From assembly GCA_942492895.1 (NCBI GenBank), contig OW818652.1, positions 1,510,637 through 1,534,636 on the forward strand: a DNA stretch of 24,000 nt, given 5' to 3'. The translations under genes were made by a program, and so were the position numbers. The stretch is from Candidatus Electrothrix laxa. Its GTDB lineage: Bacteria > Desulfobacterota > Desulfobulbia > Desulfobulbales > Desulfobulbaceae. Under the pieces are notes generated by a model that did no database searches, had not been told where the DNA came from, and saw only the letters and a list, made by a program, of their open reading frames with translations. Below, in pieces: positions 2,169 through 18,087 of this stretch (its first letter is position 1; the number at the start of each line of letters is the position of its first letter).

Positions 2169-2978
2169 ATGGATTTTTTAGCAGATTTTGCAGACATTCT
2201 CCTTCTCACCCTGCGGGATGTCACCCCGATTGTCGGTTTGATTATCGGTTTCCAGCTTCTGGTCATCCGACAACCTGTTCCTCAGCCCAAACGACTCATT
2301 CTCGGCGGAATATATGTGGTGCTCGGCCTGTCCCTCTTTCTCATCGGCCTAGAAAAAGCCCTGTTTCCTTTGGGAAGAATGATGGCGACCCAGCTTTCCG
2401 ACTCGCAGTTTCTCTACGGTTTAGAGACCATGCCAGCAACACCGGACTGGCTGGCCTATGGCTGGATTTATCTTTTCGCCGCCATGATCGGCTTTGCCAC
2501 CACCATAGCTGAACCCTCATTGATCGCGGTTGCCTATAAGGCCAACGAAGTCTCCGGCGGAACCATCAGCCAATGGGGATTACGCATCACTGTAGCGGTC
2601 GGCGTAGCCTTTGGCATCAGCTTGGGCACCTTCCGTATTGTCAGCGGCACTCCGCTGTACATGTATATTCTGACTGGTTATGTCATTGTCATTATTCAGA
2701 CCGTCTTTGCCCCGAAAAATATTATCCCCCTGGCCTATGACTCGGGCGGAGTAACCACCTCCACAGTGACTGTGCCCTTGGTCGCCGCTCTGGGGCTGGG
2801 GCTGGCCTCCACGGTACCGGGTCGTAATCCTGCCCTGGATGGCTTTGGGCTGATCGCCTTTGCCAGCCTGTGTCCGATCATCACAGTACTCGGTTATGCC
2901 CAATTCGGACAGTGGATGACCGCAAGGCGAAGAAAGAAAGAAAATAAGGAGAATAAGGAGAACGAACATGCTGTTTAA
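2169..2978 (+). CDS. DUF1538 family polytopic membrane protein, subunit 2 (paralog of the previous gene), with a Lys/Glu/Asn-rich C-terminal tail
   Basis: 269-aa ORF starting 12 nt after the previous stop. Carries the paralogous motif [26 protein letters not shown]...[15 protein letters not shown]. The tail RRRKKENKENKENEHAV is encoded by a tandem 9-nt repeat. Confidence 0.85.
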   Translation: MDFLADFADILLLTLRDVTPIVGLIIGFQLLVIRQPVPQPKRLILGGIYVVLGLSLFLIGLEKALFPLGRMMATQLSDSQFLYGLETMPATPDWLAYGWIYLFAAMIGFATTIAEPSLIAVAYKANEVSGGTISQWGLRITVAVGVAFGISLGTFRIVSGTPLYMYILTGYVIVIIQTVFAPKNIIPLAYDSGGVTTSTVTVPLVAALGLGLASTVPGRNPALDGFGLIAFASLCPIITVLGYAQFGQWMTARRRKKENKENKENEHAV

Positions 2979-3315
2979 AACGATTATCGCCTCGGTAAAA
3001 CCGGACCACACGGACAAGGTGGTGGATGCGGCCAAGGAAGCTGGGGCCACCGGGGCCACTATCCTTTCGGGTCGGGGCACAGGCTGTCACGAGGCCAAAA
3101 CCTTTTTCGGGCTGACCTTGGAACCGCAGACTGATATCATCATGATGCTGATTGAGGAGCATCTAGTCCAAGGAATTTTGGATGCCATTGTCGAAGCTGG
3201 AGAATTTAAAAAACCCGGAACAGGCATGGCCTTTGTTCTGCCTGTGGAACAGGTTGTGGGACTGGATAGCCAGCTGAGTATCATTAAGGAAAAAATACAG
3301 GATCAGTATTTTTAG
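2968..3315 (+). CDS. PII (GlnB)-like signal-transduction protein with a short T-loop, of the type associated with DUF1538 genes
   Basis: 115 aa. The pattern MLFKTIIASVKPDHTDKVVDAAKEAGATGATILSGRGTG... is a beta-alpha-beta PII-like layout. The ATG overlaps the upstream gene by 11 nt, with AAGGAG 7 nt upstream. Confidence 0.8.
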   Translation: MLFKTIIASVKPDHTDKVVDAAKEAGATGATILSGRGTGCHEAKTFFGLTLEPQTDIIMMLIEEHLVQGILDAIVEAGEFKKPGTGMAFVLPVEQVVGLDSQLSIIKEKIQDQYF

Positions 3316-3362
3316 AAACAACGCCAATAAACAACGTTGAGAAATAAAGAAGAGAGAAAATC

Positions 3363-3764
3363 ATGGCAACTGAAGGAGCAATCATTCGAGCACGGGATGT
3401 AATGCGGACAAAACTGGTCACCATTGACGGGATGGCCACGGTCAGTGAAGCAGTAGATAAGATGCGGGCCGAACATCACACCCACCTGCTGGTGGAAAAA
3501 AGGAATGCCGATGACGCCTGGGCCATTATTTCTATCCGGGATCTGGTGGAAGGCGTACTGGTCCCGGAGCGATCAGCAAAAGATGTCAATGTCTTTGAAG
3601 TGATGACCAAGCCAGTCATCACGGTACCACCGGATATGGATATTCGCTATGTGGCCCGATTGCTCCATAATGCCGGTCTGAGCAGGGTTCCAGTAGAGGA
3701 AAACGGCGAGCTGATCGGCATTATTTCCCTTTCCACACTGATCTTGCATGAATCGATTTTCTGA
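3363..3764 (+). CDS. CBS-domain pair protein (133 aa)
   Basis: Two CBS-like halves: ARDVMRTKLVTIDGMATVSEAVDKM... and VFEVMTKPVITVPPDMDIRYVARLLHNAGLSRVPVEENGELIGIISLSTL. A purine-rich leader (agaagagagaaaatc) precedes the ATG. Confidence 0.85.
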   Translation: MATEGAIIRARDVMRTKLVTIDGMATVSEAVDKMRAEHHTHLLVEKRNADDAWAIISIRDLVEGVLVPERSAKDVNVFEVMTKPVITVPPDMDIRYVARLLHNAGLSRVPVEENGELIGIISLSTLILHESIF

Positions 3765-3796
3765 TTATTTTTTACAGGGGCTGCAGGGAGCACTCC

Positions 3797-4705
3797 TTAC
3801 CCCGGCTTCCCAAAAATTTTCGGGACCGTATAGGGAACCTGAAGATACTCCAGCACCTTTCCTGTCTTGTGGTAATTATGCTGATGGAGGAGCCGGGAGA
3901 AATTAAAGGATATCCCAAAATAAACGCGGCGTTCCTTCTCCACTTCAGATGTGTCATACCCCTGGGTACAGTATCCTGCATGCAGTTCCGCCCATTGCAG
4001 CCAGGAATGCTGTAGCTGATCAAAACCATCAAGTTTTACAACTAAGGCATAGTACATATTCGAATAATCATCAAAAATCCCCTGCACAGGAACATTCAAG
4101 GCATATTCAACACGAAAATCTATCTTGCGATCCAGTTCTGGATACTGCTCCATGAACATGCTGGTTAATGCCCCCAGCGTATTCATGGTCATATCGCCCC
4201 AGTCAAATCCCTGGGTTTCGCTGGTTCCATCATCAAGCTCCATAATTGTCTGCACGGCCCAAGACGAAAACACGCCGTAGCGGCCAGCTACTTTTCTGTC
4301 ATAGCCCCAATGCTTGTACAGACCAGTAAAGGCATCGGCAAGGGCATACGTCGACCAAAAATGACCGGCTTTATCCGCGCCGCCATATTTTGAATCCTTT
4401 TCAAACCAGCCTTCATCGGCAAAATGAAAACCGTCTGAGCCGTAATCCCAATCAGCGAACCCATACAAGGTAATAAAGGTAACTGCGGAGATATTTGCGT
4501 ACAAGGCCTTTTTCTCCTTAGGAAGCTCATCCCACCAGCCACCCTCACGGTCGTCATGCGTTCCCTTGCCTGCTTGGTCAGAATGAGTAACATCCTGTGG
4601 AGCATTCTGTGGAGTATTTTGTAAATTTTCACTGCATGCCGGAGAGGTTAAAGCCTCCGTGACAGCGAAGAAGAGAATAAGAATATTGAAGAGATACTTT
4701 TTCAT
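3797..4705 (-). CDS. Secreted or lipoprotein-like envelope protein (302 aa), possibly DUF2279/YfiM-like or PagL-like
   Basis: N-terminal signal peptide MKKYLFNILILFFAVTEALTSPAC with an imperfect lipobox. The motif GGADKAGHFWSTYALADAF resembles the DK-x-x-H-F signature I associate with DUF2279. The C-terminal half alternates hydrophobic and polar residues, which suggests a beta-rich fold. Confidence 0.7.
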   Translation of the reverse strand: MKKYLFNILILFFAVTEALTSPACSENLQNTPQNAPQDVTHSDQAGKGTHDDREGGWWDELPKEKKALYANISAVTFITLYGFADWDYGSDGFHFADEGWFEKDSKYGGADKAGHFWSTYALADAFTGLYKHWGYDRKVAGRYGVFSSWAVQTIMELDDGTSETQGFDWGDMTMNTLGALTSMFMEQYPELDRKIDFRVEYALNVPVQGIFDDYSNMYYALVVKLDGFDQLQHSWLQWAELHAGYCTQGYDTSEVEKERRVYFGISFNFSRLLHQHNYHKTGKVLEYLQVPYTVPKIFGKPG

Positions 4706-5100
4706 TGATCAGCTCAGAGAAGGAGGTGGTACACGACCCCGTCCCGTGTAGAGGTACGGAGGACTTCATAATTTGAGGCAATAGCACGACAGCATCTATC
4801 CCCGTTTATATATCACCCTTCCATAAAAGACAAAATTTTTCGTATCAATCGCACGTAACCGAAGAAGAAATCTTCTGGAGAAGCTGATTACATTCAGAGC
4901 AATACATACAACATCAACGCGATAAACAAGAGAACTCCATAAGCAGAGTCAACATATTTTGGAGGAGAAAAACCGACTGATAGATTGCGCTGACAGAACG
5001 ATTCAGCTATGATGTGCTGAGGCAGGAAACCAAAATTCTCCGGCAAGATCTATACGGGACCGCAACACATCCTGCAAGAGTTCTCAAGATTACTCTGAAT

Positions 5101-6336
5101 ATGAACAACATACTCGTATTTCAACATCTCAAAAAAGCATTTCTGGTTGCTCTCTGGTTCTGTTTTCTCACCTTTCCCATCATGGTTATCAAGGTGAACC
5201 CCTACGAAGAAACCGTTGTCTGGCGTTGGCAAAATATGCTCTATGTAGGGCTGTCCAGTTTTGTTCTGTACCTGTTGAGCCGAGCCTTTCTGGGCTGGAA
5301 GGTAGCGCAGGAAGAAAAGAAAAAAATACGCGGGGTTCCGAAAAATACCCCGGAAAAAGAAAAAAAGAATTGGCAGCACATCCTGCTTAACGAACCAAAA
5401 GTATTTTTACCGGTTCTTGGAGTGCTTTTGCTGATTCTTTCTACTTTTCCGCTGTACCTTTCCACCTATCAGATCAACATCATGATCACAGCCCTGATGT
5501 ACGTAGTCTTGGGGCTGGGCCTCAACATCGTTGTCGGGGTGGCAGGTCTGCTTGATCTGGGCTATGTGGCCTTTTATGCGGTCGGGGCTTATACCTATGC
5601 CCTGCTCAACCTCCATTTTGGGATCGGCTTCTGGACAGCCCTGCCCATCGGCGGGTTGCTGGCTGCCTGTTTCGGCATTTTGCTCGGCTTTCCGGTGCTG
5701 CGTTTGCGAGGCGACTATCTGGCTATTGTCACCTTGGGTTTCGGAGAAATTATCCGCTTGGTGCTAGAAAACTGGTCCGATTTTTCCCAAGGTCCTAGCG
5801 GAATATCCAATATCCCTAGGCCCGGCTTATTCGGCATGGAGATGACGCTTGATCAATCTATTAGCTATCTCTATTATCTGATGATCGCCCTGGTGATTTT
5901 TACCGTTTTCATGGTGAACCGGCTGCAAAATTCCCGGATCGGTCGCGCCTGGTTTGCCCTGCGGGAAGATGAGATTGCCTGCCAGGCTATGGGGATCGAT
6001 AAAACCAAAACCAAGTTAACTGCTTTTTCCCTGGGTGCCTTTTGGGCGGGCATGGTCGGGGTAATATTTGCCGCCAAAACGACCTTTGTTAATCCTTCTT
6101 CCTTTACCTTTCTCGAATCCGCTATTATCCTCTGCATTGTGGTGCTGGGCGGTATGGGCTCTATTATCGGAGTGATCATTGCTGCTTTAGTCCTGATGCT
6201 GCTGCCGGAATACCTGCGGGCCTTTGCCGATTATCGCATGTTGGTCTTCGGAGCGACCTTGGTTATCATGATGGTCTTTCGGCCCAAGGGGCTGATCTCC
6301 ACCGTGCGGCGGACGTACAGGAGAAACACCCTATGA
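5101..6336 (+). CDS. livM: Branched-chain amino acid ABC transporter permease LivM
   Basis: Near-identical blocks to E. coli LivM as I recall it: LGLNIVVGVAGLLDLGYVAFYAVGAY, GFPVLRLRGDYLAIVTLGFGEIIR, GRAWFALREDEIAC, VLGGMGS. The ORF opens at GTG 5014; I prefer ATG 5101 (MNNILVF...), but no clear SD supports either, so the start is uncertain. Confidence 0.9.
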   Translation: MNNILVFQHLKKAFLVALWFCFLTFPIMVIKVNPYEETVVWRWQNMLYVGLSSFVLYLLSRAFLGWKVAQEEKKKIRGVPKNTPEKEKKNWQHILLNEPKVFLPVLGVLLLILSTFPLYLSTYQINIMITALMYVVLGLGLNIVVGVAGLLDLGYVAFYAVGAYTYALLNLHFGIGFWTALPIGGLLAACFGILLGFPVLRLRGDYLAIVTLGFGEIIRLVLENWSDFSQGPSGISNIPRPGLFGMEMTLDQSISYLYYLMIALVIFTVFMVNRLQNSRIGRAWFALREDEIACQAMGIDKTKTKLTAFSLGAFWAGMVGVIFAAKTTFVNPSSFTFLESAIILCIVVLGGMGSIIGVIIAALVLMLLPEYLRAFADYRMLVFGATLVIMMVFRPKGLISTVRRTYRRNTL

Positions 6337-6959
6337 AGTCGTTTTCAAAATGGACGATTGAAGAGGTGGAAGAAACTTTTCATATTGTTCAGCAAAAACA
6401 GGACCAACAGCTTGAACAGTGGATGAGCCCGGTTCCTGCTCCTTCAGATATCGAAAAGCAGCAATTGCAGCTGCTTCAGGAAAAATTGCTGGATAACGTA
6501 TGGGACTGGAATGAAGAGGAACTCAAGGTTTATTTCATTATTCCGCTTCTTGAGCTGATTCGTTTTGAGGAAACAGACTGCAAACCCTTTCTTTCCCGAG
6601 AACTTACGATGATCGTTGAAGACGACACTGTCTCCGGTATTGTCGCTTTCATGGTGGCCTCTGGAAGACGTTCTCCAAAAAAACCGTATTTTTTTATCCA
6701 TGAATACAAGAAAGAACATGATTCCTCAAACGACCCCCTCGGTCAGCTGATGATCGAAATGGTCACGGCCCGGCATCTGAATGCTGACAGTCATCCTGTG
6801 TACGGGGCCTATGTTATGGGGCGTTATTGGCATTTTGTCGTGCTCCATGAACAATGCTATGCTGTCCATACTGGGCTTAATGCTGCCAATGAAGAACTGC
6901 TGCATATCTTTGGTGTGCTCCAAAACAGCAAGGAAATTATCGGAGAGTGGAGTCGGTAA
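6333..6959 (+). CDS. PD-(D/E)XK-like (HsdR N-terminal-like) small protein, 208 aa
   Basis: The core WNEEELKVYFIIPLLELIRF ... SGIVAFMVA ... PYFFIHEYKK ... QLMIEMVTA ... YGAYVMGRYWHFVVL matches the layout of restriction-endonuclease-like HsdR_N domain proteins: helix, strand with D, hydrophobic-E-x-K, then G-x-x-W-x-F. AGGAG lies 9 nt upstream and the ATG overlaps the livM stop. Confidence 0.65.
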   Translation: MKSFSKWTIEEVEETFHIVQQKQDQQLEQWMSPVPAPSDIEKQQLQLLQEKLLDNVWDWNEEELKVYFIIPLLELIRFEETDCKPFLSRELTMIVEDDTVSGIVAFMVASGRRSPKKPYFFIHEYKKEHDSSNDPLGQLMIEMVTARHLNADSHPVYGAYVMGRYWHFVVLHEQCYAVHTGLNAANEELLHIFGVLQNSKEIIGEWSR

Positions 6960-7149
6960 TGCCCTTGCGCTTCAAGCGGGAGTTTGGGTACAGGAGCAAT
7001 TGCAGAACTTACAGGGTTGGTGAAGAGCTTAAGAGGTTGCAACAGGAGCAGGGTCTGATAAAAGGGTGAATCGGCCTCGTTGCCGGTTTAGCTATATTCA
7101 GCAACTGGGAAGATGTGAGCATGCAAACTCTCTTTTTCAATGAGTTATT

Positions 7150-8151
7150 ATGACATTAGTTGCGGCATTTAGTGCCAACGGTATACCAGCCTTAATTGGT
7201 GATATAGCTCTCACAAGAGATGCAATACGCTCTTTAAGAAAAAAAGCATATATCATCACGCAAAATCTGGCTATTGCATGGACAGGTCACGCTATTGTTG
7301 CCAAATTGGTTGTCTCCGAGATGAGAGAAGCCTTTTCGGCATTGCATCCAACGAAAGTAGATGTTGAACGTTTTTTTACCCGATATCAAGTCGAAGATTT
7401 CGGGGCGTTACACACTAACTTTATAGGATGGCTAGTTGACGATGAGGCTCATTGCTTTCGATGGAATTGCCTTTTTCCAAATGAGGTGTTCTATGAAACA
7501 AGCTTTACTGATGGTTCTGGAGAGGAATATTTGAAAAACCTACGGAGAGAGCGAGAGCAATGGGAGAAGGGAGGTTCTGGATTACCCTCTGAAGAGCAAA
7601 CTGTTCTATCTCTTATCAACGAAGTAGCGCATGCGCGATTCAGAGAAACTCTTGACAAGAATACTTGGGACATAAGTTTTGGCGGATCTTATGATATTAT
7701 TGTGTACCTAGCAGGCCGGTTTCGCTATGTTAGGTCAGTGATTTATATTGGTTGGGATTACCATTGGAACTCCAATACAGGAACTGGAAAATTACAACAA
7801 GCACCTCTGCTTATAAAGCATAATTGCATGGGTGAGTTTTCGGTTATTCAAGAGGCGTTGCATGGTTCTTATTACAATGGGAAAACGACTAACTACTTAA
7901 GTCGTCCAGTCTATGACAATATGGATCAAGCTGATCTTTCTCAATTTCCTCTAACCATTGATTCAGATTACTACGCAAACTATTTTATCTTTCGCGAAAA
8001 TGGCAAGGTGCCTTTCAAGATACTGCTGACTGTTCAAAAGATAACCAAGGAAGGACCACTAAGGATGAAAAGGAAGGATGGTGCCTATTTTTTGCATTAC
8101 GATACCAACTTACTTGATGATATCTATAGAAAACATACGACGGCCTGTTAA
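7150..8151 (+). CDS. HslV/proteasome-beta-like Ntn-hydrolase domain (about residues 1-195) fused to an uncharacterised C-terminal domain of about 140 aa
   Basis: Starts Met-Thr (MTLVAAFSANGIPALIGDIALT...). In Thr1 numbering it has N9-G10, G16-D17, K30-K31 followed by a hydrophobic strand and AWTG, D120-G121-S122-G123, and later FGGSYDIIVYLAGRF. E. coli HslV as I recall it has T1, N9-G10, G16-D17, K32-K33, G123-S124-G125. The gene is visibly A+T-rich. Confidence 0.6.
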   Translation: MTLVAAFSANGIPALIGDIALTRDAIRSLRKKAYIITQNLAIAWTGHAIVAKLVVSEMREAFSALHPTKVDVERFFTRYQVEDFGALHTNFIGWLVDDEAHCFRWNCLFPNEVFYETSFTDGSGEEYLKNLRREREQWEKGGSGLPSEEQTVLSLINEVAHARFRETLDKNTWDISFGGSYDIIVYLAGRFRYVRSVIYIGWDYHWNSNTGTGKLQQAPLLIKHNCMGEFSVIQEALHGSYYNGKTTNYLSRPVYDNMDQADLSQFPLTIDSDYYANYFIFRENGKVPFKILLTVQKITKEGPLRMKRKDGAYFLHYDTNLLDDIYRKHTTAC

Positions 8152-8338
8152 ACAACTTCTGTCGATTCTTATCCGCCTATCCACCTAAAAAAACAAAATA
8201 ATACCTGCTCGTAACCAACAACCTCAACCTCACACAACATCATGAGCAAAATGGCGGAAGCCGGATAGGGCCACCCTCTCAGTAGAAGAAAGGAACCCGA
8301 AGCCCTCGGTAACGGATCAAAACTATACTTGTCACCTT

Positions 8339-8821
8339 ATGAATAAAGAATTTGTCTACTTGGAAACAAGTTTCATCAGTTATCTCACTGCCCGGCCAAG
8401 CAGAGACCTTATCGTCTCCGCCCATCAGGCTATAAGCCAAGAATGGTGGGATCAAAGGAGAAGCTGTTTTGAAGTCGTTATATCCGAGATCGTTGCGGTG
8501 GAAGCGGGAAAGGGGCACCCCGAAGCGGCACAGAGACGGCTGGACCTTCTCAGGGACATTCCTTTTATACCGGTGCAAGAGGATGCTCTTGAATTTGCGG
8601 ATAAGCTGGTTCAAACCGGTGCTGTTCCCCAAAAGGCGGCACAGGATGCTCTGCACATCGCTGTCTGCTGTGTGAATAACGTTGATTTCCTGCTGACCTG
8701 GAATTGTAAGCATATTGCTAATGCAGAAAAAAGAGAAAGTATTCGGACTGCCGCTGTTGAACACGGCCTTGTTGCACCGGTTATCTGTACGCCTGAAGAA
8801 CTCTTTGGAGATGAGCTATGA
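8339..8821 (+). CDS. PIN-like domain protein, putative VapC-type toxin (160 aa)
   Basis: VYLETSFISYLTARPSRDLI ... AQDALHIAVCCVNNVDFLLTWNCKHIAN follows the PIN layout: N-terminal acidic residue on strand 1 and a C-terminal D-x-x-H-x-A ... L-x-T-x-(D/N) block. It has a 4-nt overlap with a small downstream ORF. Confidence 0.7.
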   Translation: MNKEFVYLETSFISYLTARPSRDLIVSAHQAISQEWWDQRRSCFEVVISEIVAVEAGKGHPEAAQRRLDLLRDIPFIPVQEDALEFADKLVQTGAVPQKAAQDALHIAVCCVNNVDFLLTWNCKHIANAEKRESIRTAAVEHGLVAPVICTPEELFGDEL

Positions 8822-9024
8822 TAGAAGATCCTATTGTGAAAGAAACACGAAAGATACGAGAGCAGATAGCCTCGGAACACAAGTATGATGTGTATAAACT
8901 GGGCAGGTATTTCATGCGAAAGCAGCAAGCCGGACAGCGGGTCTTTGTTACAATTCCTTCGAAAAAATCGGAATTAAATCCAGCTAGTTGTAAACGAGCA
9001 AGCACCGACAGCAGCATTATTTAA
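8818..9024 (+). CDS. Small partner protein (68 aa), putative antitoxin of the PIN-like protein
   Basis: ATGA overlap with the PIN gene stop. The sequence is small and charged (MIEDPIVKETRKIREQIASEHKYDVYKLGRYFMRKQQ...). I recall small proteins of this type encoded directly downstream of this PIN subfamily. Confidence 0.55.
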   Translation: MIEDPIVKETRKIREQIASEHKYDVYKLGRYFMRKQQAGQRVFVTIPSKKSELNPASCKRASTDSSII

Positions 9025-9043
9025 AAAAGTAAGGCAAATTTCC

Positions 9044-9850
9044 ATGAAGCATGTGGCATCATTACGATACGGAGTGGTTTTTAAAAAAGCATTCTGCGAC
9101 CCAGAGATTTTTGCTGCATTTATTCAAGATATGCTGGGGCTGGATCTGGAGATCGAAAAGGTTGAAACTGAGAAAGAATTTAACCCTCCCATAGGTTATG
9201 TAACACCGCGTTTTGATCTGTTCGCGGAAGACAAGAAGCACCGCGTCATTGTTGATATTCAGCATGCACGCAGTATTGACCATTACGACAGGTTTCTCTA
9301 TTATCACTGTGCCGCCTTGTTGGAACAGATTGCAAATTCAAAAGACTATCATCCGGCATTAAAGGTTTTCACTCTTGTTGTCTTGACGTCCGGTGACCGT
9401 CATAAAACTGACATCGCAATGACAGATTTTGATCCTCACGATTTATCAGGACATCCTTTAAGGGAAATCCCTCATAAAATTATCTACCTGTGTCCTAAAT
9501 ATGTCAATGATGCCACTCCAGAACCTTATCGGGAATGGCTACAGGCAATTAATGACACGTTAGATGAAGAGGTTGATGAAAAACGCTATAGTCGGCCGGA
9601 GATTCATAAGCTTTTTGATCACATTCAGAAGGATCGGATTTCACCTGCTGAACGTGCAAATATGATTGAAGAGTATCATCAGGAGGAACTCCAGAGAGCA
9701 CAGTTTGACGAAGGCAAGCTGGCCGTTGCGAAAGCCTTGCTTAAAGAGGGTATCCCTCCTGATATTATCGCTAAAACTACAGGATTTTCTTTGGATGCCA
9801 TAAAAGGGATAAAAAACTGTGTCGTAATTTCAGACTCCAACATATCTTAA
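9044..9850 (+). CDS. Rpn-family PD-(D/E)XK nuclease / putative transposase (268 aa)
   Basis: The opening LRYGVVFKKAFCDPEIFAAFIQDMLG, then FDLFAEDKKHRVIVDIQHA (D ... D-x-Q core), and a C-terminal helical region ending KALLKEGIPPDIIAKTTGFSLDAIKGI are typical of PDDEXK_Tnp_1/Rpn proteins. Confidence 0.8.
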   Translation: MKHVASLRYGVVFKKAFCDPEIFAAFIQDMLGLDLEIEKVETEKEFNPPIGYVTPRFDLFAEDKKHRVIVDIQHARSIDHYDRFLYYHCAALLEQIANSKDYHPALKVFTLVVLTSGDRHKTDIAMTDFDPHDLSGHPLREIPHKIIYLCPKYVNDATPEPYREWLQAINDTLDEEVDEKRYSRPEIHKLFDHIQKDRISPAERANMIEEYHQEELQRAQFDEGKLAVAKALLKEGIPPDIIAKTTGFSLDAIKGIKNCVVISDSNIS

Positions 9851-9864
9851 TTTCGCAAGAGATT

Positions 9865-10692
9865 ATGACCGAACAGAGTAATCATACCATCCTTGAAGTC
9901 AGTGACCTGACCATGCAATTCGGGGGAATCAGGGCCTTGGACAAAATGAATATCCGGGTCCGCCAAGGGGAAATCGCGGCCCTGATCGGTCCTAACGGCG
10001 CAGGCAAAACCACCTTTTTTAACTGCCTGACCGGGATCTACAAACCGACCTCCGGCAACCTTTTACTGACACCGCCGGGGCAAGAGAGCAAACGACTCAA
10101 CGGCTTAAAACCCAATCAGGTGACTGAGCAAGGACTGGCACGGACCTTTCAGAATATCCGGCTCTTCCCTGACATGAGTGTCTTGGAAAACGTCATGATC
10201 GGTTGCCATTGCCGAACCAAAGCCAGGGTGCTCGGAGCAATCTTTCGCGATAAGCGGACGATTAAGGAAGAAAAAGAGGTCATTGCTCGCTCCTTTGCCC
10301 TCTTAGAAAAAGTCGGGCTTGCCGAGCTGGCCAATGAATTTGCGAAAAACTTACCCTATGGAGCGCAACGCAGGCTCGAAATAGCCAGGGCTCTTGCAAC
10401 TGAACCCGCCCTTCTGCTGCTTGATGAACCGGCAGCCGGAATGAATCCCCAGGAGACGGTGGAGCTGGATGCATTGATTACCGAGATCCGAGATGACGGC
10501 ATCTCGATCCTTCTGATTGAGCACGATATGAAATTGGTCATGAGTCTCTCCGACCACATCTTTGTGATGGATTACGGCAAAAAAATCGCTGAAGGTACCC
10601 CTAACGAGGTCCGGAATAATCCGGAGGTCATCAGGGCGTATCTCGGGGGAGATATAGAATCCGGCATTGATATCAATAATATAACAGCATGA
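9865..10692 (+). CDS. livG: Branched-chain amino acid ABC transporter ATP-binding protein LivG
   Basis: LEVSDLTMQFGGIRALDKMNIRVRQGEIAALIGPNGAGKTTFFNCLTGIYKPTSG (Walker A), the signature LPYGAQRRLEIARAL, Walker B LLLLDEPAAGMNP, and the H-loop LLIEHDM. Confidence 0.92.
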   Translation: MTEQSNHTILEVSDLTMQFGGIRALDKMNIRVRQGEIAALIGPNGAGKTTFFNCLTGIYKPTSGNLLLTPPGQESKRLNGLKPNQVTEQGLARTFQNIRLFPDMSVLENVMIGCHCRTKARVLGAIFRDKRTIKEEKEVIARSFALLEKVGLAELANEFAKNLPYGAQRRLEIARALATEPALLLLDEPAAGMNPQETVELDALITEIRDDGISILLIEHDMKLVMSLSDHIFVMDYGKKIAEGTPNEVRNNPEVIRAYLGGDIESGIDINNITA

Positions 10693-13016: not shown

Positions 13017-13065
13017 AATCTCTCCTCAACAGAAGTAATAAAACTTGCAACAGCTTGCTGAATCC

Positions 13066-14412
13066 ATGGAAAAAAAGAAGGTCAAAATTTTAATTGTAGA
13101 CGATGAGCAGGTCCATAGGTATATGCTCTATTCCATGCTGACTGAATGGGGCTGGCCCTGTCAGGAAGCGGATGACGGCAAAACAGCAGTTGAAGCGGTA
13201 CGACAAGGGCCCTTTGATGTTATCCTCCTGGATGTCTGTATGGAACCTATGGACGGTCTGGAGGCTCTGCGCAAGATACACTCCATTAATCCATCGATTC
13301 CGGTGGTTATGATGACTGCCTATTCTTCAATAGACTCGGCTGTTGAGGCAATTAAACTGGGTGCCCATGATTATCTTACAAAACCCATAGATTTTGAACG
13401 ACTTCGTCAAACCCTGGAAGTTGCTATGGGGCATCGGCAGCAACCGGACAAAGCTGAGCTCTCTGAAAAACCTTTTGGCGAGGACGGACGAATTATTGGT
13501 TCTTCAACTCCAATGCAAACCCTCTGGGAAATGGTCGTCCAAGTTGCTCCCACAGAGGCTACAGTCCTCGTCACCGGTGACTCAGGAACCGGCAAGGAGC
13601 TGGTCGCCTCAGCCTTGCATTATAAAAGCCACCGCAGAAAAGGCCCCTTTATCAAGGTGAACTGTGCAGCTCTTTCTGAAACCCTGCTGGAGTCAGAACT
13701 TTTCGGTCATGAAAAAGGAGCCTTCACAGGGGCAGACCGCCGCCGCGAGGGCTGTTTTGTCCAAGCCCAAGAGGGCACGCTCTTTCTTGACGAGATAGGC
13801 GAAACAACCCCGGCTATGCAGGCAAAGCTCTTACGAGTCCTTCAGGAGCACGAACTCCAGCGAGTCGGTGGTCAAGAGATCATTACTGTTGATGTGCGCA
13901 TTGTCACGGCAACCAACCGGGACCTAGAAGCAGAGGTGAAAGCAGGAAATTTCCGGGAAGATCTTTATTACCGACTCAATGTTGTGGCTCTGGACATGCC
14001 TTCTTTATGTGACCGTGACGGTGACATTCCCTTGCTCGCTGATTTTTTTGTGCGCAATTTTGCCAAAAGAAACAAACGAGAGGTACAAGGGATCACTCCT
14101 GAGTGCATGGATATCTTGAATCGCTACCCCTGGCCAGGCAATGTTCGGGAGCTGGAGAACGCCATAGAACGGGGCGTGATCCTGATGCGGGGAGATTACC
14201 TTGACCTTGACAGCCTGCCTATGGCTGTTCAGAATTGGGCCGGAATGAATCCGAAAAAAGAAGAAGAGCAACCGTCCACTCTGAGAGAAGCTGAGCGTGT
14301 TCTCATCCTGAAGACTCTTGAGGAAACCAACGGAAACCGCAGCGAGGCCGCCCGGCGCTTACAGATTACCCGGAAGACTCTGCTGAATAAACTGAAACGG
14401 TATGGTGTGTAA
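13066..14412 (+). CDS. Sigma-54-dependent response regulator (NtrC/AtoC family enhancer-binding protein)
   Basis: Receiver domain (KILIVDDE ... DVILLDVCMEPMDG ... MMTAY ... KP). AAA+ domain with Walker A GDSGTGKE, the sigma-54 contact loop GAFTGA, and Walker B LFLDEIG. C-terminal Fis-type HTH NGNRSEAARRLQITRKTLLNKLKRYG. Start taken at the first ATG; the ORF opens at TTG 13045. Confidence 0.92.
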   Translation: MEKKKVKILIVDDEQVHRYMLYSMLTEWGWPCQEADDGKTAVEAVRQGPFDVILLDVCMEPMDGLEALRKIHSINPSIPVVMMTAYSSIDSAVEAIKLGAHDYLTKPIDFERLRQTLEVAMGHRQQPDKAELSEKPFGEDGRIIGSSTPMQTLWEMVVQVAPTEATVLVTGDSGTGKELVASALHYKSHRRKGPFIKVNCAALSETLLESELFGHEKGAFTGADRRREGCFVQAQEGTLFLDEIGETTPAMQAKLLRVLQEHELQRVGGQEIITVDVRIVTATNRDLEAEVKAGNFREDLYYRLNVVALDMPSLCDRDGDIPLLADFFVRNFAKRNKREVQGITPECMDILNRYPWPGNVRELENAIERGVILMRGDYLDLDSLPMAVQNWAGMNPKKEEEQPSTLREAERVLILKTLEETNGNRSEAARRLQITRKTLLNKLKRYGV

Positions 14413-16855: not shown

Positions 16856-17041
16856 CTAGCTCTCGGTAACGGTAATGGCAGCTGATTCGCAAACTTCCAC
16901 GCAGGTTTCGCAACCCAGACACTCGTCGTCGTTGACCGGCTCTGACTTACCATCTTCCATTTCAAATACTGCTGCTGGGCAGGAACCGACACACTCTTCA
17001 CAACCTGTACATTTATCTTTATCTACAACTACTTCAAACAT
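16856..17041 (-). CDS. fdx: Small 2x[4Fe-4S]-type ferredoxin (61 aa)
   Basis: [22 protein letters not shown] ... [12 protein letters not shown] carries two C-x2-C-x2-C-x3-C clusters. GGAG lies about 7 nt upstream of the ATG at 17041. The 24-codon upstream extension in the ORF track is unlikely to be translated. Confidence 0.9.
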
Positions 17042-17135
17042 TGTCTTTCTCCTTAGTAGCGGCTCTCTAACGAGCCCTTTTATAAAAGTAACCTCACGAT
17101 TAATTGTGTACAAATAACATGTACTGACTTGGGCA

Positions 17136-17163
17136 AAGATACCCTTAATATTTTTACTGTCAA
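17136..17163 (-). promoter_or_regulatory. Candidate sigma-70 promoter for the ferredoxin gene
   Basis: On the - strand: TTGACA (17163..17158), 16 nt spacer, TATCTT (17141..17136). Lies about 95 nt upstream of the ATG. Confidence 0.3.
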
Positions 17164-17484
17164 TATTTTTTTTACATGATCCGCTCAGTCAAATATTTCC
17201 CTGCGTCCAGCCATCATTCCTTACAAACAGCCTAAAAAAGTAATCATCAAACAATACAGAAAAAATAGCATTCCCTCCCTTCTTTTTTACTCTTTCCCCA
17301 AACGGACACAACAAGAAAATAAGCACGAGCTTAATAAGCAGAAAGATACACCCGAATGGCTTTTTTCCCTTACGAAAACGGCTCATCATTTACATTTTTC
17401 ACCTACAGCTTGACAAGATCTCCTTTTTATAGTAAACAGGCTTTCAGTGTTACAAAAAATAAAAAAATATTACTTCTATTCATC

Positions 17485-18087
17485 ATGCATATTTCAGAAG
17501 GTATTCTTTCGGCACCGGTTTTGATAAGCGGAGGGGTCGTTGCAGCGATCGGCACCTATATCGGGTTAAAAAAAATTGACATTGAAGAGATCATGCCCGT
17601 TGCTCTTCTCTCTTCTGCCTTTTTCGTGGCAGGACTCGTCCATGTTCCTCTTGGACCGGGATCTGTACATTTAATGCTGATCGGCCTGCTCGGAGTAATG
17701 CTGGGCTGGGCCGCTTTCCCGGCAATCCTTATCGCTCTTTTTCTTCAGGCCCTGTTTTTTCAATTTGGCGGTTTTTCTGTCCTCGGAGTGAACACCGTAA
17801 CAATGTCTGTTCCGGCTCTCTGCTGTTATTATCTAACCCGCCCTTGGATGGATAACCCAAAAACACGATCTGCGGCCGCATTTTTTGCAGGCTTCTCGGC
17901 GATCCTACTGGCCTCGCTGCTAACATCCTGCGCCTTGGCCCTTACCGATACCGGCTTTACAACTGCTGCGCAACTCATTATTGCGGCCAATATACCGGTC
18001 ATGATTATTGAAGGATGCATCACCATGTTCACTGTTGGTTTTCTAGCCAAGGTCCAACCAGAAATTTTACACCTCGAATACGCATGA
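17485..18087 (+). CDS. cbiM: ECF-type Ni/Co transporter substrate-capture component CbiM/NikM (200 aa)
   Basis: The canonical N-terminus MHISEGIL (Met-His metal-ligand motif) fixes the start at 17485. The protein is polytopic and hydrophobic, with HVPLGPGSVHLMLIGLLGVMLG. The 43-codon upstream extension in the ORF track is rejected. Confidence 0.9.
   Translation: MHISEGILSAPVLISGGVVAAIGTYIGLKKIDIEEIMPVALLSSAFFVAGLVHVPLGPGSVHLMLIGLLGVMLGWAAFPAILIALFLQALFFQFGGFSVLGVNTVTMSVPALCCYYLTRPWMDNPKTRSAAAFFAGFSAILLASLLTSCALALTDTGFTTAAQLIIAANIPVMIIEGCITMFTVGFLAKVQPEILHLEYA

Follow-up and report, generated by a model that had tools for sequence, protein, structure and literature searches.

Threonine proteases of the proteasome type are usually viewed as bulk degradation machines that are fed by an ATPase. 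HslV (ClpQ), the peptidase of HslVU, is a single-domain protein of ~175 amino acids encoded next to hslU, and Fuchs is said to have reported in 2017 that the Anbu operon holds ATP-grasp, Alpha-E, and transglutaminase genes. Fuchs, Alva, and Lupas (Bioinformatics 2021; PMC8665760) described 22 new families of prokaryotic proteasome homologs, all with the catalytic triad and with neither a propeptide nor a co-occurring AAA+ ATPase. Among them, RPC, DAH, GPH/"DGH", and FC4 have extra C-terminal domains, some of which match no known structure, and for the 22 families "no genomic contexts ... suggestive of a specific function" were reported (PMC8665760). Connectase, which is found only in methanogens and whose known substrate is MtrA, is another proteasome homolog with an additional C-terminal domain (PMC7980362, PMC8665760). 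Here, we describe a gene at positions 7150 to 8151 of a 24,000-nucleotide stretch of DNA from the cable bacterium Candidatus Electrothrix laxa (contig OW818652.1, positions 1,510,637 to 1,534,636; this whole stretch is referred to as the window). Profile matches and a structural model make it very probable that its product belongs to the proteasome-beta/HslV-like class of N-terminal nucleophile (Ntn) hydrolases, with a predicted activity to match. Our leading reading, held tentatively, is that the protein is an active, ATPase-independent threonine hydrolase that acts as a lone effector of a conflict system and is carried as island cargo; both the activity and the function are predictions.

The preliminary description of this DNA, made from the letters alone, had noted that the protein begins Met-Thr and reproduces the catalytic landmarks of HslV and of the beta subunits of the 20S proteasome. 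The features of the gene on which this rests are as follows.

7141..7143, + strand: in-frame TGA, two codons 5' of the ATG (sequence reading)
7150..8151, + strand: gene for the 333-amino-acid, two-domain proteasome-like protein (open reading frame [ORF]; database twin 100% identical)
7150..7155, + strand: Met1-Thr2, with Thr2 the predicted N-terminal nucleophile, equivalent to Thr1 of HslV and the proteasome (family conservation, HslV alignment)
7150..7770, + strand: N-terminal domain, residues 1-207, predicted Ntn hydrolase of the proteasome-beta/HslV-like type (AlphaFold2, Foldseek, profile match)
7201..7203, + strand: Asp18 codon, the Asp17 equivalent (124/124 members; aligned with the HslV GD)
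7243..7245, + strand: Lys32 codon, the Lys33 equivalent (124/124 members; aligned with HslV Lys33)
7513..7521, + strand: Gly122-Ser123-Gly124, putative equivalent of proteasome G128-S129-G130 and HslV G123-S124-G125 (conservation; low-confidence global hhalign)
7771..8148, + strand: C-terminal beta-rich domain, residues 208-333, fold unrecognized (separate model)

The protein is 100% identical to KKHLCK_06395, a hypothetical protein of Candidatus Electrothrix laxa. Because of the in-frame TGA at 7141-7143, a propeptide, an upstream extension, and an alternative upstream start are all excluded; the earliest usable start is the ATG at 7150, the N terminus reads MTLVAAF, and the Met1-Thr2 pair is genetically fixed. 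All of the landmarks are present and, in Met-based numbering, are G17-D18, K31-K32, D121-G122-S123-G124, and F177-G178-G179. Their proposed mapping onto HslV, including a two-residue deletion before the lysine, proved correct in the hhalign and HMMER alignments, with G-S-G placed at low confidence. The protein had no match in Pfam, NCBIfam, PHROGs, or PADLOC (Pfam and PADLOC were searched to E ≤ 1), and a single-sequence phmmer search against the PDB returned only noise.

We recovered 38 relatives with a word-indexed search and many more by searching 1.84 billion cluster representatives exhaustively with a profile. With family size counted as clusters at 50% identity, the latter yielded 1377 clusters at E ≤ 1e-3, 767 at E ≤ 1e-10, and 195 at E ≤ 1e-30, and nearly all matches align from residue 1 of both the profile and the protein. 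The family is absent from Pfam, NCBIfam, PHROGs, and PADLOC. It is mostly metagenomic, with a few scattered named members from Methylobacter, Capsulimonas, Nitrospira, and an Oscillatoria plasmid and from metagenome-assembled genomes of Acidobacteria, Verrucomicrobia, Fibrobacteres, and Desulfobacteraceae; it thus spans Desulfobacterota, Gammaproteobacteria, Armatimonadota, Nitrospirota, Acidobacteriota, Verrucomicrobiota, Fibrobacterota, and Cyanobacteria. To assess conservation, we aligned 124 full-length members with MAFFT, most of them less than 35% identical to the query. Position 2 is Thr in 122 of the 124 (98%) and Ser in the other 2, while Gly17, Asp18, Lys32, Gly122, Gly124, and Gly178 are present in 124/124. 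Ser or Thr occupies position 123 in 117/124, Gly46 is 97% and Glu166 94% conserved, and invariant aromatic residues peculiar to the family are found at W44, W94, F103, and W105. Every column with at least 85% identity lies before residue 194. We also looked among the relatives for the loss of a conserved N-terminal Thr and for a Thr2 placed internally, and found neither: an exact M-T start is present in 134 of 211 relatives, and starts of the form M/V/L-T dominate. The apparent N-terminal extensions of some database entries are best read as mis-called starts, because all of them have M, V, or L directly before the conserved Thr. One full-length relative, P0072, starts M-A-L, with Ala in place of Thr, and may be catalytically dead or a sequencing or calling artifact.

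A full-length AlphaFold2 (AF2) model built on the family alignment had a mean predicted local distance difference test (pLDDT) score of 84.6 and a predicted template modeling (pTM) score of 0.85, with pLDDT mostly above 85 in the N-terminal domain (residues 1-207). Over residues ~1-207, strands and helices follow one another in the model as they do in a proteasome beta subunit, with hairpins at 4-18, strands to 46 (including 40-46), helices at 48-62 and 69-77, strands at 89-121, helices at 125-135 and 147-167, and strands from 181. Helices H1 to H4 are all present, in an alpha-beta-beta-alpha Ntn sandwich. Foldseek matched 922 PDB chains at E ≤ 1e-3, and the best 50 of these 922 are all 20S proteasome subunit chains; the top match has an E value of 2e-8 and a probability of 1.0 over ~205 aligned columns, and the template modeling scores of the 20S matches, normalized on the target, are 0.55-0.67. 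At the profile level, family profiles A1 and A2 matched Trypanosoma brucei HslV (PDB 4hnz) with E values of 1e-3 and 2.4e-4, and these alignments set GD and K32 on GD17 and K33 of HslV. In hhalign against Escherichia coli HslV (NC_000913.3), M1-T2, G17-D18, and K32 aligned with M-T, G-D17, and K33 (pairwise E = 1.2e-3); in global mode, which is of low confidence, DGSG fell on the HslV G-S-G. A distant relative, P0092, matched the Pfam Proteasome family (PF00227) with an E value of 4e-4 and 20.4 bits, below the gathering cutoff of 22.4. Structure and profile searches, which could have returned no Ntn hydrolase at all, thus led to the proteasome and HslV. Given the HslV profile match, the hhalign alignment to E. 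coli HslV, and the 20S structural match, the motifs are not a chance resemblance, and the fold, the profile matches, and the family-wide conservation of Thr2, Asp18, Lys32, and G-S/T-G together lend strong support to the Ntn-hydrolase assignment. Within this alignment, the conserved Gly46 pairs with HslV Gly48. Trp44 was considered as the S1-pocket residue 45 and dropped, because HMMER and hhalign put a one-residue gap there and pair residue 43 with Gly47.

As the preliminary description had also stated, the protease fold is followed by an additional region of unrecognized type. This C-terminal domain consists of about eight strands and a terminal helix and measures 125-138 residues. Modeled separately as residues 196-333, a span that includes the last strand of the N-terminal domain, it had a pLDDT of 87.9 and a pTM of 0.79. 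Foldseek found no match for it in the PDB (best E = 0.79) or among the BFVD viral models (best E = 0.13), and it has no Pfam match. Family members share on average 17% pairwise identity in the C-terminal domain versus 32% in the protease domain, C-terminal identity is the lower of the two in 97% of pairs, and the C-terminal domain diverges about twice as fast; in the query's own clade it is well kept (64%). Many distant members of 340-400 amino acids match the profile only to position ~240, and some relatives carry further C-terminal extensions, for total lengths of 470-590 amino acids. At the level of sequence, this architecture reads as a catalytic module that stays constant, linked to an accessory module that can be exchanged. 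The extra extension is 130-250 residues long in P0043, P0052, P0060, P0076, and others, and the extensions of these longer relatives (470-590 amino acids) contain no significant Pfam domain; P0052 and P0060 share theirs, which has a weak, subthreshold match to Shiga-like toxin B (E = 1.4e-3).

We compared the protein with each of the described systems. At the sequence level, HslV is closest: both proteins have an M-T start and no propeptide, and GD17, K33, and, as aligned with low confidence, GSG of HslV recur at nearly the same spacing. In contrast to HslV, the target has 333 amino acids, an extra C-terminal domain, and no AAA+ neighbor, and it reaches no HslV or Proteasome model of Pfam or NCBIfam. 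The 20S beta subunits provide the best structural matches, and the equivalents of Thr1, Asp17, and Lys33 and the putative equivalent of G-S-G are conserved in the target family; unlike those subunits, the target has no propeptide or autoprocessing and no alpha-subunit gene, has an extra domain, and shares only 11-18% identity. Architecture and operon context therefore exclude that the protein is HslV, Anbu, or a 20S beta subunit, and no ATP-grasp, Alpha-E, or transglutaminase neighbors are present in the window or at the homolog loci. Membership in RPC or PPH, both of which lack helix H2 (PMC8665760), was excluded by the presence of H2 in the target model, a distinction drawn from the published description. 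GPH, described as gammaproteobacterial, and DAH, described as mainly actinobacterial (PMC8665760), are narrow in taxonomy compared with the eight phyla seen here, again by published description only. Cluster entries WP_036249786.1, NOT27181.1, and PYJ64875.1 of the target family are, by accession comparison only, not among the published representatives (WP_085249540.1, WP_152342571.1, and others). The target family, which may itself be one of the 22, shares the concept of the 2021 orphan homologs (stand-alone, with the triad, and with neither propeptide nor AAA+ partner) and adds a linkage to restriction-modification (R-M), defense, and mobile genes. The view that such a fold is unusual in this setting has to be tempered, since 22 stand-alone families, some with C-terminal domains, have been known since 2021 (PMC8665760). 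The kind of protein is thus already known, stand-alone proteasome homologs with unrecognized C-terminal domains having been cataloged in that year (PMC8665760). What appears to be new here is an uncurated family with a distinctive unrecognized C-terminal domain and a recurrent association with defense and mobile islands.

This association emerged from a survey of ~20 nonredundant homolog loci, picked by the length of available sequence. Pattern scans, for which the back-translated patterns are narrow, gave 1 locus from genome contigs and 10 from metagenome contigs. The loci with mobile or defense genes are listed below.

L001: integrase 35 nucleotides upstream of the family member; resolvase and AbiEi/AbiEii within 5 kb
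L010: family member between two integrases
L007: serine recombinases next to smpB
L028: insertion sequence (IS) and group II intron fragments
L014, NC_019763.1 26579-43286: conjugative plasmid of Oscillatoria nigro-viridis PCC 7112, with the family member at 8001-9182
L004, locus 2824-9017: gene for a 1676-amino-acid NACHT/STAND NTPase, ending 147 nucleotides upstream on the same strand
L005: AriA/Gabija-like AAA_15/21 ATPase, CoiA-like, and HNH genes in an integrase-bounded island
L018, 306-3385: complete MvaI/BcnI R-M pair, with the family member downstream
L019, 3372-7990: complete type II R-M system (methylase, restriction enzyme, and Mrr nuclease), with the family member downstream
L024, 15-2084: type I HsdR gene (C-terminal region) adjoining the family member

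Integrase-flanked islands and R-M, NACHT, and AriA-like genes therefore recur. An all-against-all blastp comparison of the ORFs within 4 kb at 23 loci found only integrases and resolvases in common, and on this basis a conserved partner, antitoxin, or substrate gene was rejected. The gene travels alone, with no recurrent partner, and is often found in islands that are flanked by integrases or rich in defense genes. Neither the window nor the ~20 homolog loci contain an AAA+ unfoldase. The clearest case of a defense context is the Oscillatoria nigro-viridis plasmid NC_019763.1. Its member, a protein of 393 amino acids (MTLVV..GD..KQK..CGSGT), is encoded within a type I operon, with hsdS on one side and hsdR on the other, and its gene overlaps the start of hsdR; a gene for an SprT-like metalloprotease follows it, and a multiubiquitin/E2/ThiF-E1/DUF6527 cluster lies 5 kb upstream. 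The anticodon nuclease PrrC sits within a type I R-M operon at the EcoprrI locus. By analogy, the plasmid member occupies a PrrC-like slot, which is a feature of one distant member only and not of the window, and PrrC is an ABC-ATPase/HEPN nuclease whose fold and chemistry are unrelated to the protease fold. As separate observations at these loci, the NACHT/STAND protein and the family member of L004 may work together in that lineage as sensor and effector; in L018 and L019, the R-M genes and the protease gene are set apart by an unannotated ORF (180-264 amino acids), the two ORFs being mutually dissimilar; and L008 has a 75-amino-acid hydrophobic ORF after the homolog that is not conserved elsewhere.

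Within the window, the gene comes second in a row of five co-directional genes that make up an island of low G+C content at third codon positions (GC3).

5014-6336: livM, flank of the island
6333..9850, + strand: low-GC3 island of five co-directional genes between livM and livG (domain matches, G+C, GC3)
6333-6959, + strand: PD-DExK nuclease (PADLOC E = 1.6e-14)
8339-8821, + strand: PIN protein (Pfam E = 1.6e-4, just under the cutoff)
8818-9024, + strand: 68-amino-acid ORF with no family match, overlapping the PIN gene by 4 nucleotides
9044-9850, + strand: Rpn/PDDEXK_2 nuclease (E = 1.4e-8)
9865-10692: livG, flank of the island
13045-14412: sigma-54 response regulator, the only AAA+ gene in the window, 5 kb away from the target

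In canonical liv operons, livM and livG are adjacent. The G+C content is 40.5% in the target gene versus 49.4% in livM, 51.2% in livG, and 48.1% in the window, and the GC3 values of 0.36 versus 0.60 (livM) and 0.59 (livG) separate the genes better. The immediate neighbors in the island also have a low G+C content (41.5-48.7%), and all island genes have a lower GC3 than the flanks. The preliminary description was right in the identity of the neighbors, which are indeed PD-(D/E)XK-like, PIN-like, and Rpn genes, and in placing no HslU or other AAA+ unfoldase beside the gene. It was also right in the direction of the compositional difference (40.5% versus 49-51%) but not in its size: the 33-35% and 63% that it gave come from extreme 60-nucleotide lines, which range from 0.33 to 0.47 in the target and from 0.33 to 0.62 in livM, and are not means. 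Neither the gene nor the island is bordered by meaningful direct or inverted repeats, and searches of the window for tRNA, Rfam, and tandem-repeat features came back empty; with no flanking repeats and no tRNA or structured RNA at its borders, a discrete mobile cassette is unsupported. Promoter and terminator scans stayed at background level, and no small ORF flanks the target. Among the neighbors, the start of the PD-DExK gene overlaps the livM stop (ATGA), which may couple the translation of this first island gene to that of the transporter operon; the PIN gene and the 68-amino-acid ORF downstream of it look like a toxin-antitoxin-like pair.

If the protein is an active conflict effector, its action could be pictured as follows. 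Methionine aminopeptidase would remove Met1, as happens in E. coli HslV (MTTIV...), leaving a Thr whose amine and hydroxyl would form the catalytic center. No autoprocessing would be needed; assembly, the C-terminal domain, or substrate specificity would have to keep the activity in check. The C-terminal domain, which is rigidly attached and diverges fast, would serve in recognition of a substrate or trigger or in control of assembly, and would take the place of an unfoldase in deciding what is cleaved and when. As a single-gene effector, in anti-phage defense or in competition between elements, the enzyme would cut a specific host or invader protein instead of degrading proteins in bulk, and the gene of the window would be cargo of a small island of nucleases and toxins inserted between livM and livG. 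The genomic context and the evolution of the domains point to a role in conflict or defense as a possibility, which we hold no more firmly than the reading as a whole; for a defense effector in particular, the evidence is circumstantial and the role plausible. The earlier suggestion of an effector or sensor of a defense or addiction module accordingly stands in part: the recurrent islands with R-M, NACHT, and AriA-like genes speak for it, while the missing partner, the lack of a PADLOC model, and the housekeeping neighbors of some members do not.

Several points weigh against this reading. No defense-system model in PADLOC matches the target (E ≤ 1). Islands gather cargo of many kinds, so co-location is weak evidence of function; the context evidence rests on ~20 loci, and five loci (L008, L013, L015, L027, and L029) have ordinary neighbors and no mobile or defense marker. 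The role given to the C-terminal domain is pure inference. At the oxyanion-hole position (HslV Gly45, proteasome Gly47), residue 43 is Gly in 53% of members and Ala in 45%. Finally, connectase shows that a proteasome fold can be a ligase and not a protease (PMC7980362).

We also considered a bolder form, which taken as a whole we regard as somewhat unlikely: that the family is a previously unrecognized type of immune or conflict effector encoded by one gene, the first defense protein of bacteria to be based on the proteasome fold. It would be a threonine protease that matures constitutively and that a hypervariable C-terminal sensor domain, of new fold, either silences or directs to its target. 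Detection of an invader would lead it to cut a key protein of the host or phage, and in some lineages it would, by analogy with PrrC, be wired into type I R-M operons as a second line of defense.

A less adventurous explanation is an ATP-independent, self-compartmentalizing protease for quality control, like BPH or an uncapped 20S core, that would form hexameric or heptameric rings with the C-terminal domains outside and degrade unfolded proteins without an unfoldase. The protein does have the fold and catalytic residues of the ring-forming proteases, H1 to H4 are present in the model, and some members lie among housekeeping genes; C termini generally point away from the rings, and the new homologs have no AAA+ partner (PMC8665760). 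The family is, however, distributed sporadically across phyla, the GC3 of the gene is low relative to its flanks, linkage to integrases and defense genes is frequent, and the accessory domain diverges fast. For these reasons, accessory, horizontally moving cargo fits better than a housekeeping protease, and we consider the ring protease improbable.

About equally doubtful is a connectase-like enzyme, that is, a sequence-specific transpeptidase, ligase, or processing enzyme that would act as a monomer, form an acyl-enzyme on Thr1 with one target, and then carry out a transfer or a single cut. Connectase shares with the target an N-terminal Thr, an extra C-terminal beta domain, and the lack of an ATPase, and it demonstrates that a monomeric proteasome homolog with such a domain can be a specific ligase (PMC7980362, PMC8665760). 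The invariant W44, W94, F103, and W105 would also suit a defined binding site. Against this, connectase is restricted to methanogenic archaea, no substrate gene is conserved in the neighborhood (blastp, 23 loci), and the structures differ: connectase has no H1/H2 and bears a lid of two helices between S3 and S4 (PMC8665760), while the target model has H1 and H2 (48-62 and 69-77) and no helical lid at that point. Connectase itself was excluded as an identity for the protein by the presence of H1/H2 and the absence of a lid insertion in the model.

We give a similarly low probability to an enzyme that serves the mobile element, either as an anti-defense protease that acts on host restriction or immune proteins upon entry or as an addiction toxin curbed by a labile factor. 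Members beside integrases (L001 and L010), on a conjugative plasmid (L014), and among IS fragments (L028) would fit such a role, as would the PIN/toxin-antitoxin-like pair in the window island, and two other families of proteasome homologs, PPH and AAH, are phage-borne (PMC8665760). The searches used, though, recovered no member from 2.9 million viral contigs (IMG/VR, patterns) or from 50,697 phage genomes (INPHARED), no adjacent antitoxin-like partner is conserved, and a place inside a type I R-M operon with overlapping frames suggests cooperation with defense. The absence of relatives from IMG/VR, with the patterns used, and from INPHARED also leaves a phage origin of the family unsupported. 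An amidohydrolase acting on a nonprotein substrate (an acyl-amide, peptidoglycan, or a small-molecule amide) is very improbable: the Ntn superfamily does include many nonprotease amidases (PMC8665760), but all significant matches belong to the proteasome/HslV branch with Thr-Asp-Lys and none to penicillin acylase, glutaminase, or Ntn-PVA, and no metabolic genes consistently co-occur.

Searches of the full-text literature turned up no paper linking a proteasome-like protein to anti-phage defense and no functional follow-up of the 2021 families. If the conflict-effector reading is true, the list of protease effectors in prokaryotic conflict systems extends to a new fold, and the family would be the first functional handle for the 2021 catalog, which reported no informative context. 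The hypothesis is directly testable, since such enzymes should respond to known proteasome inhibitors and activity-based probes; should they prove to be specific cutters or ligases, they might also be turned into tools, as happened with connectase.

Two further features of the window lie apart from the island. The intergenic region at 17030-17355, 5' of a cbiM-like gene (17356-18087), is A+T rich (~34% G+C) and C skewed; it had no Rfam match at the gathering threshold, and no cobalamin riboswitch was detected in it. At the left end of the window, positions 112-1167 on the - strand encode a DUF6414 protein (E = 2e-14).

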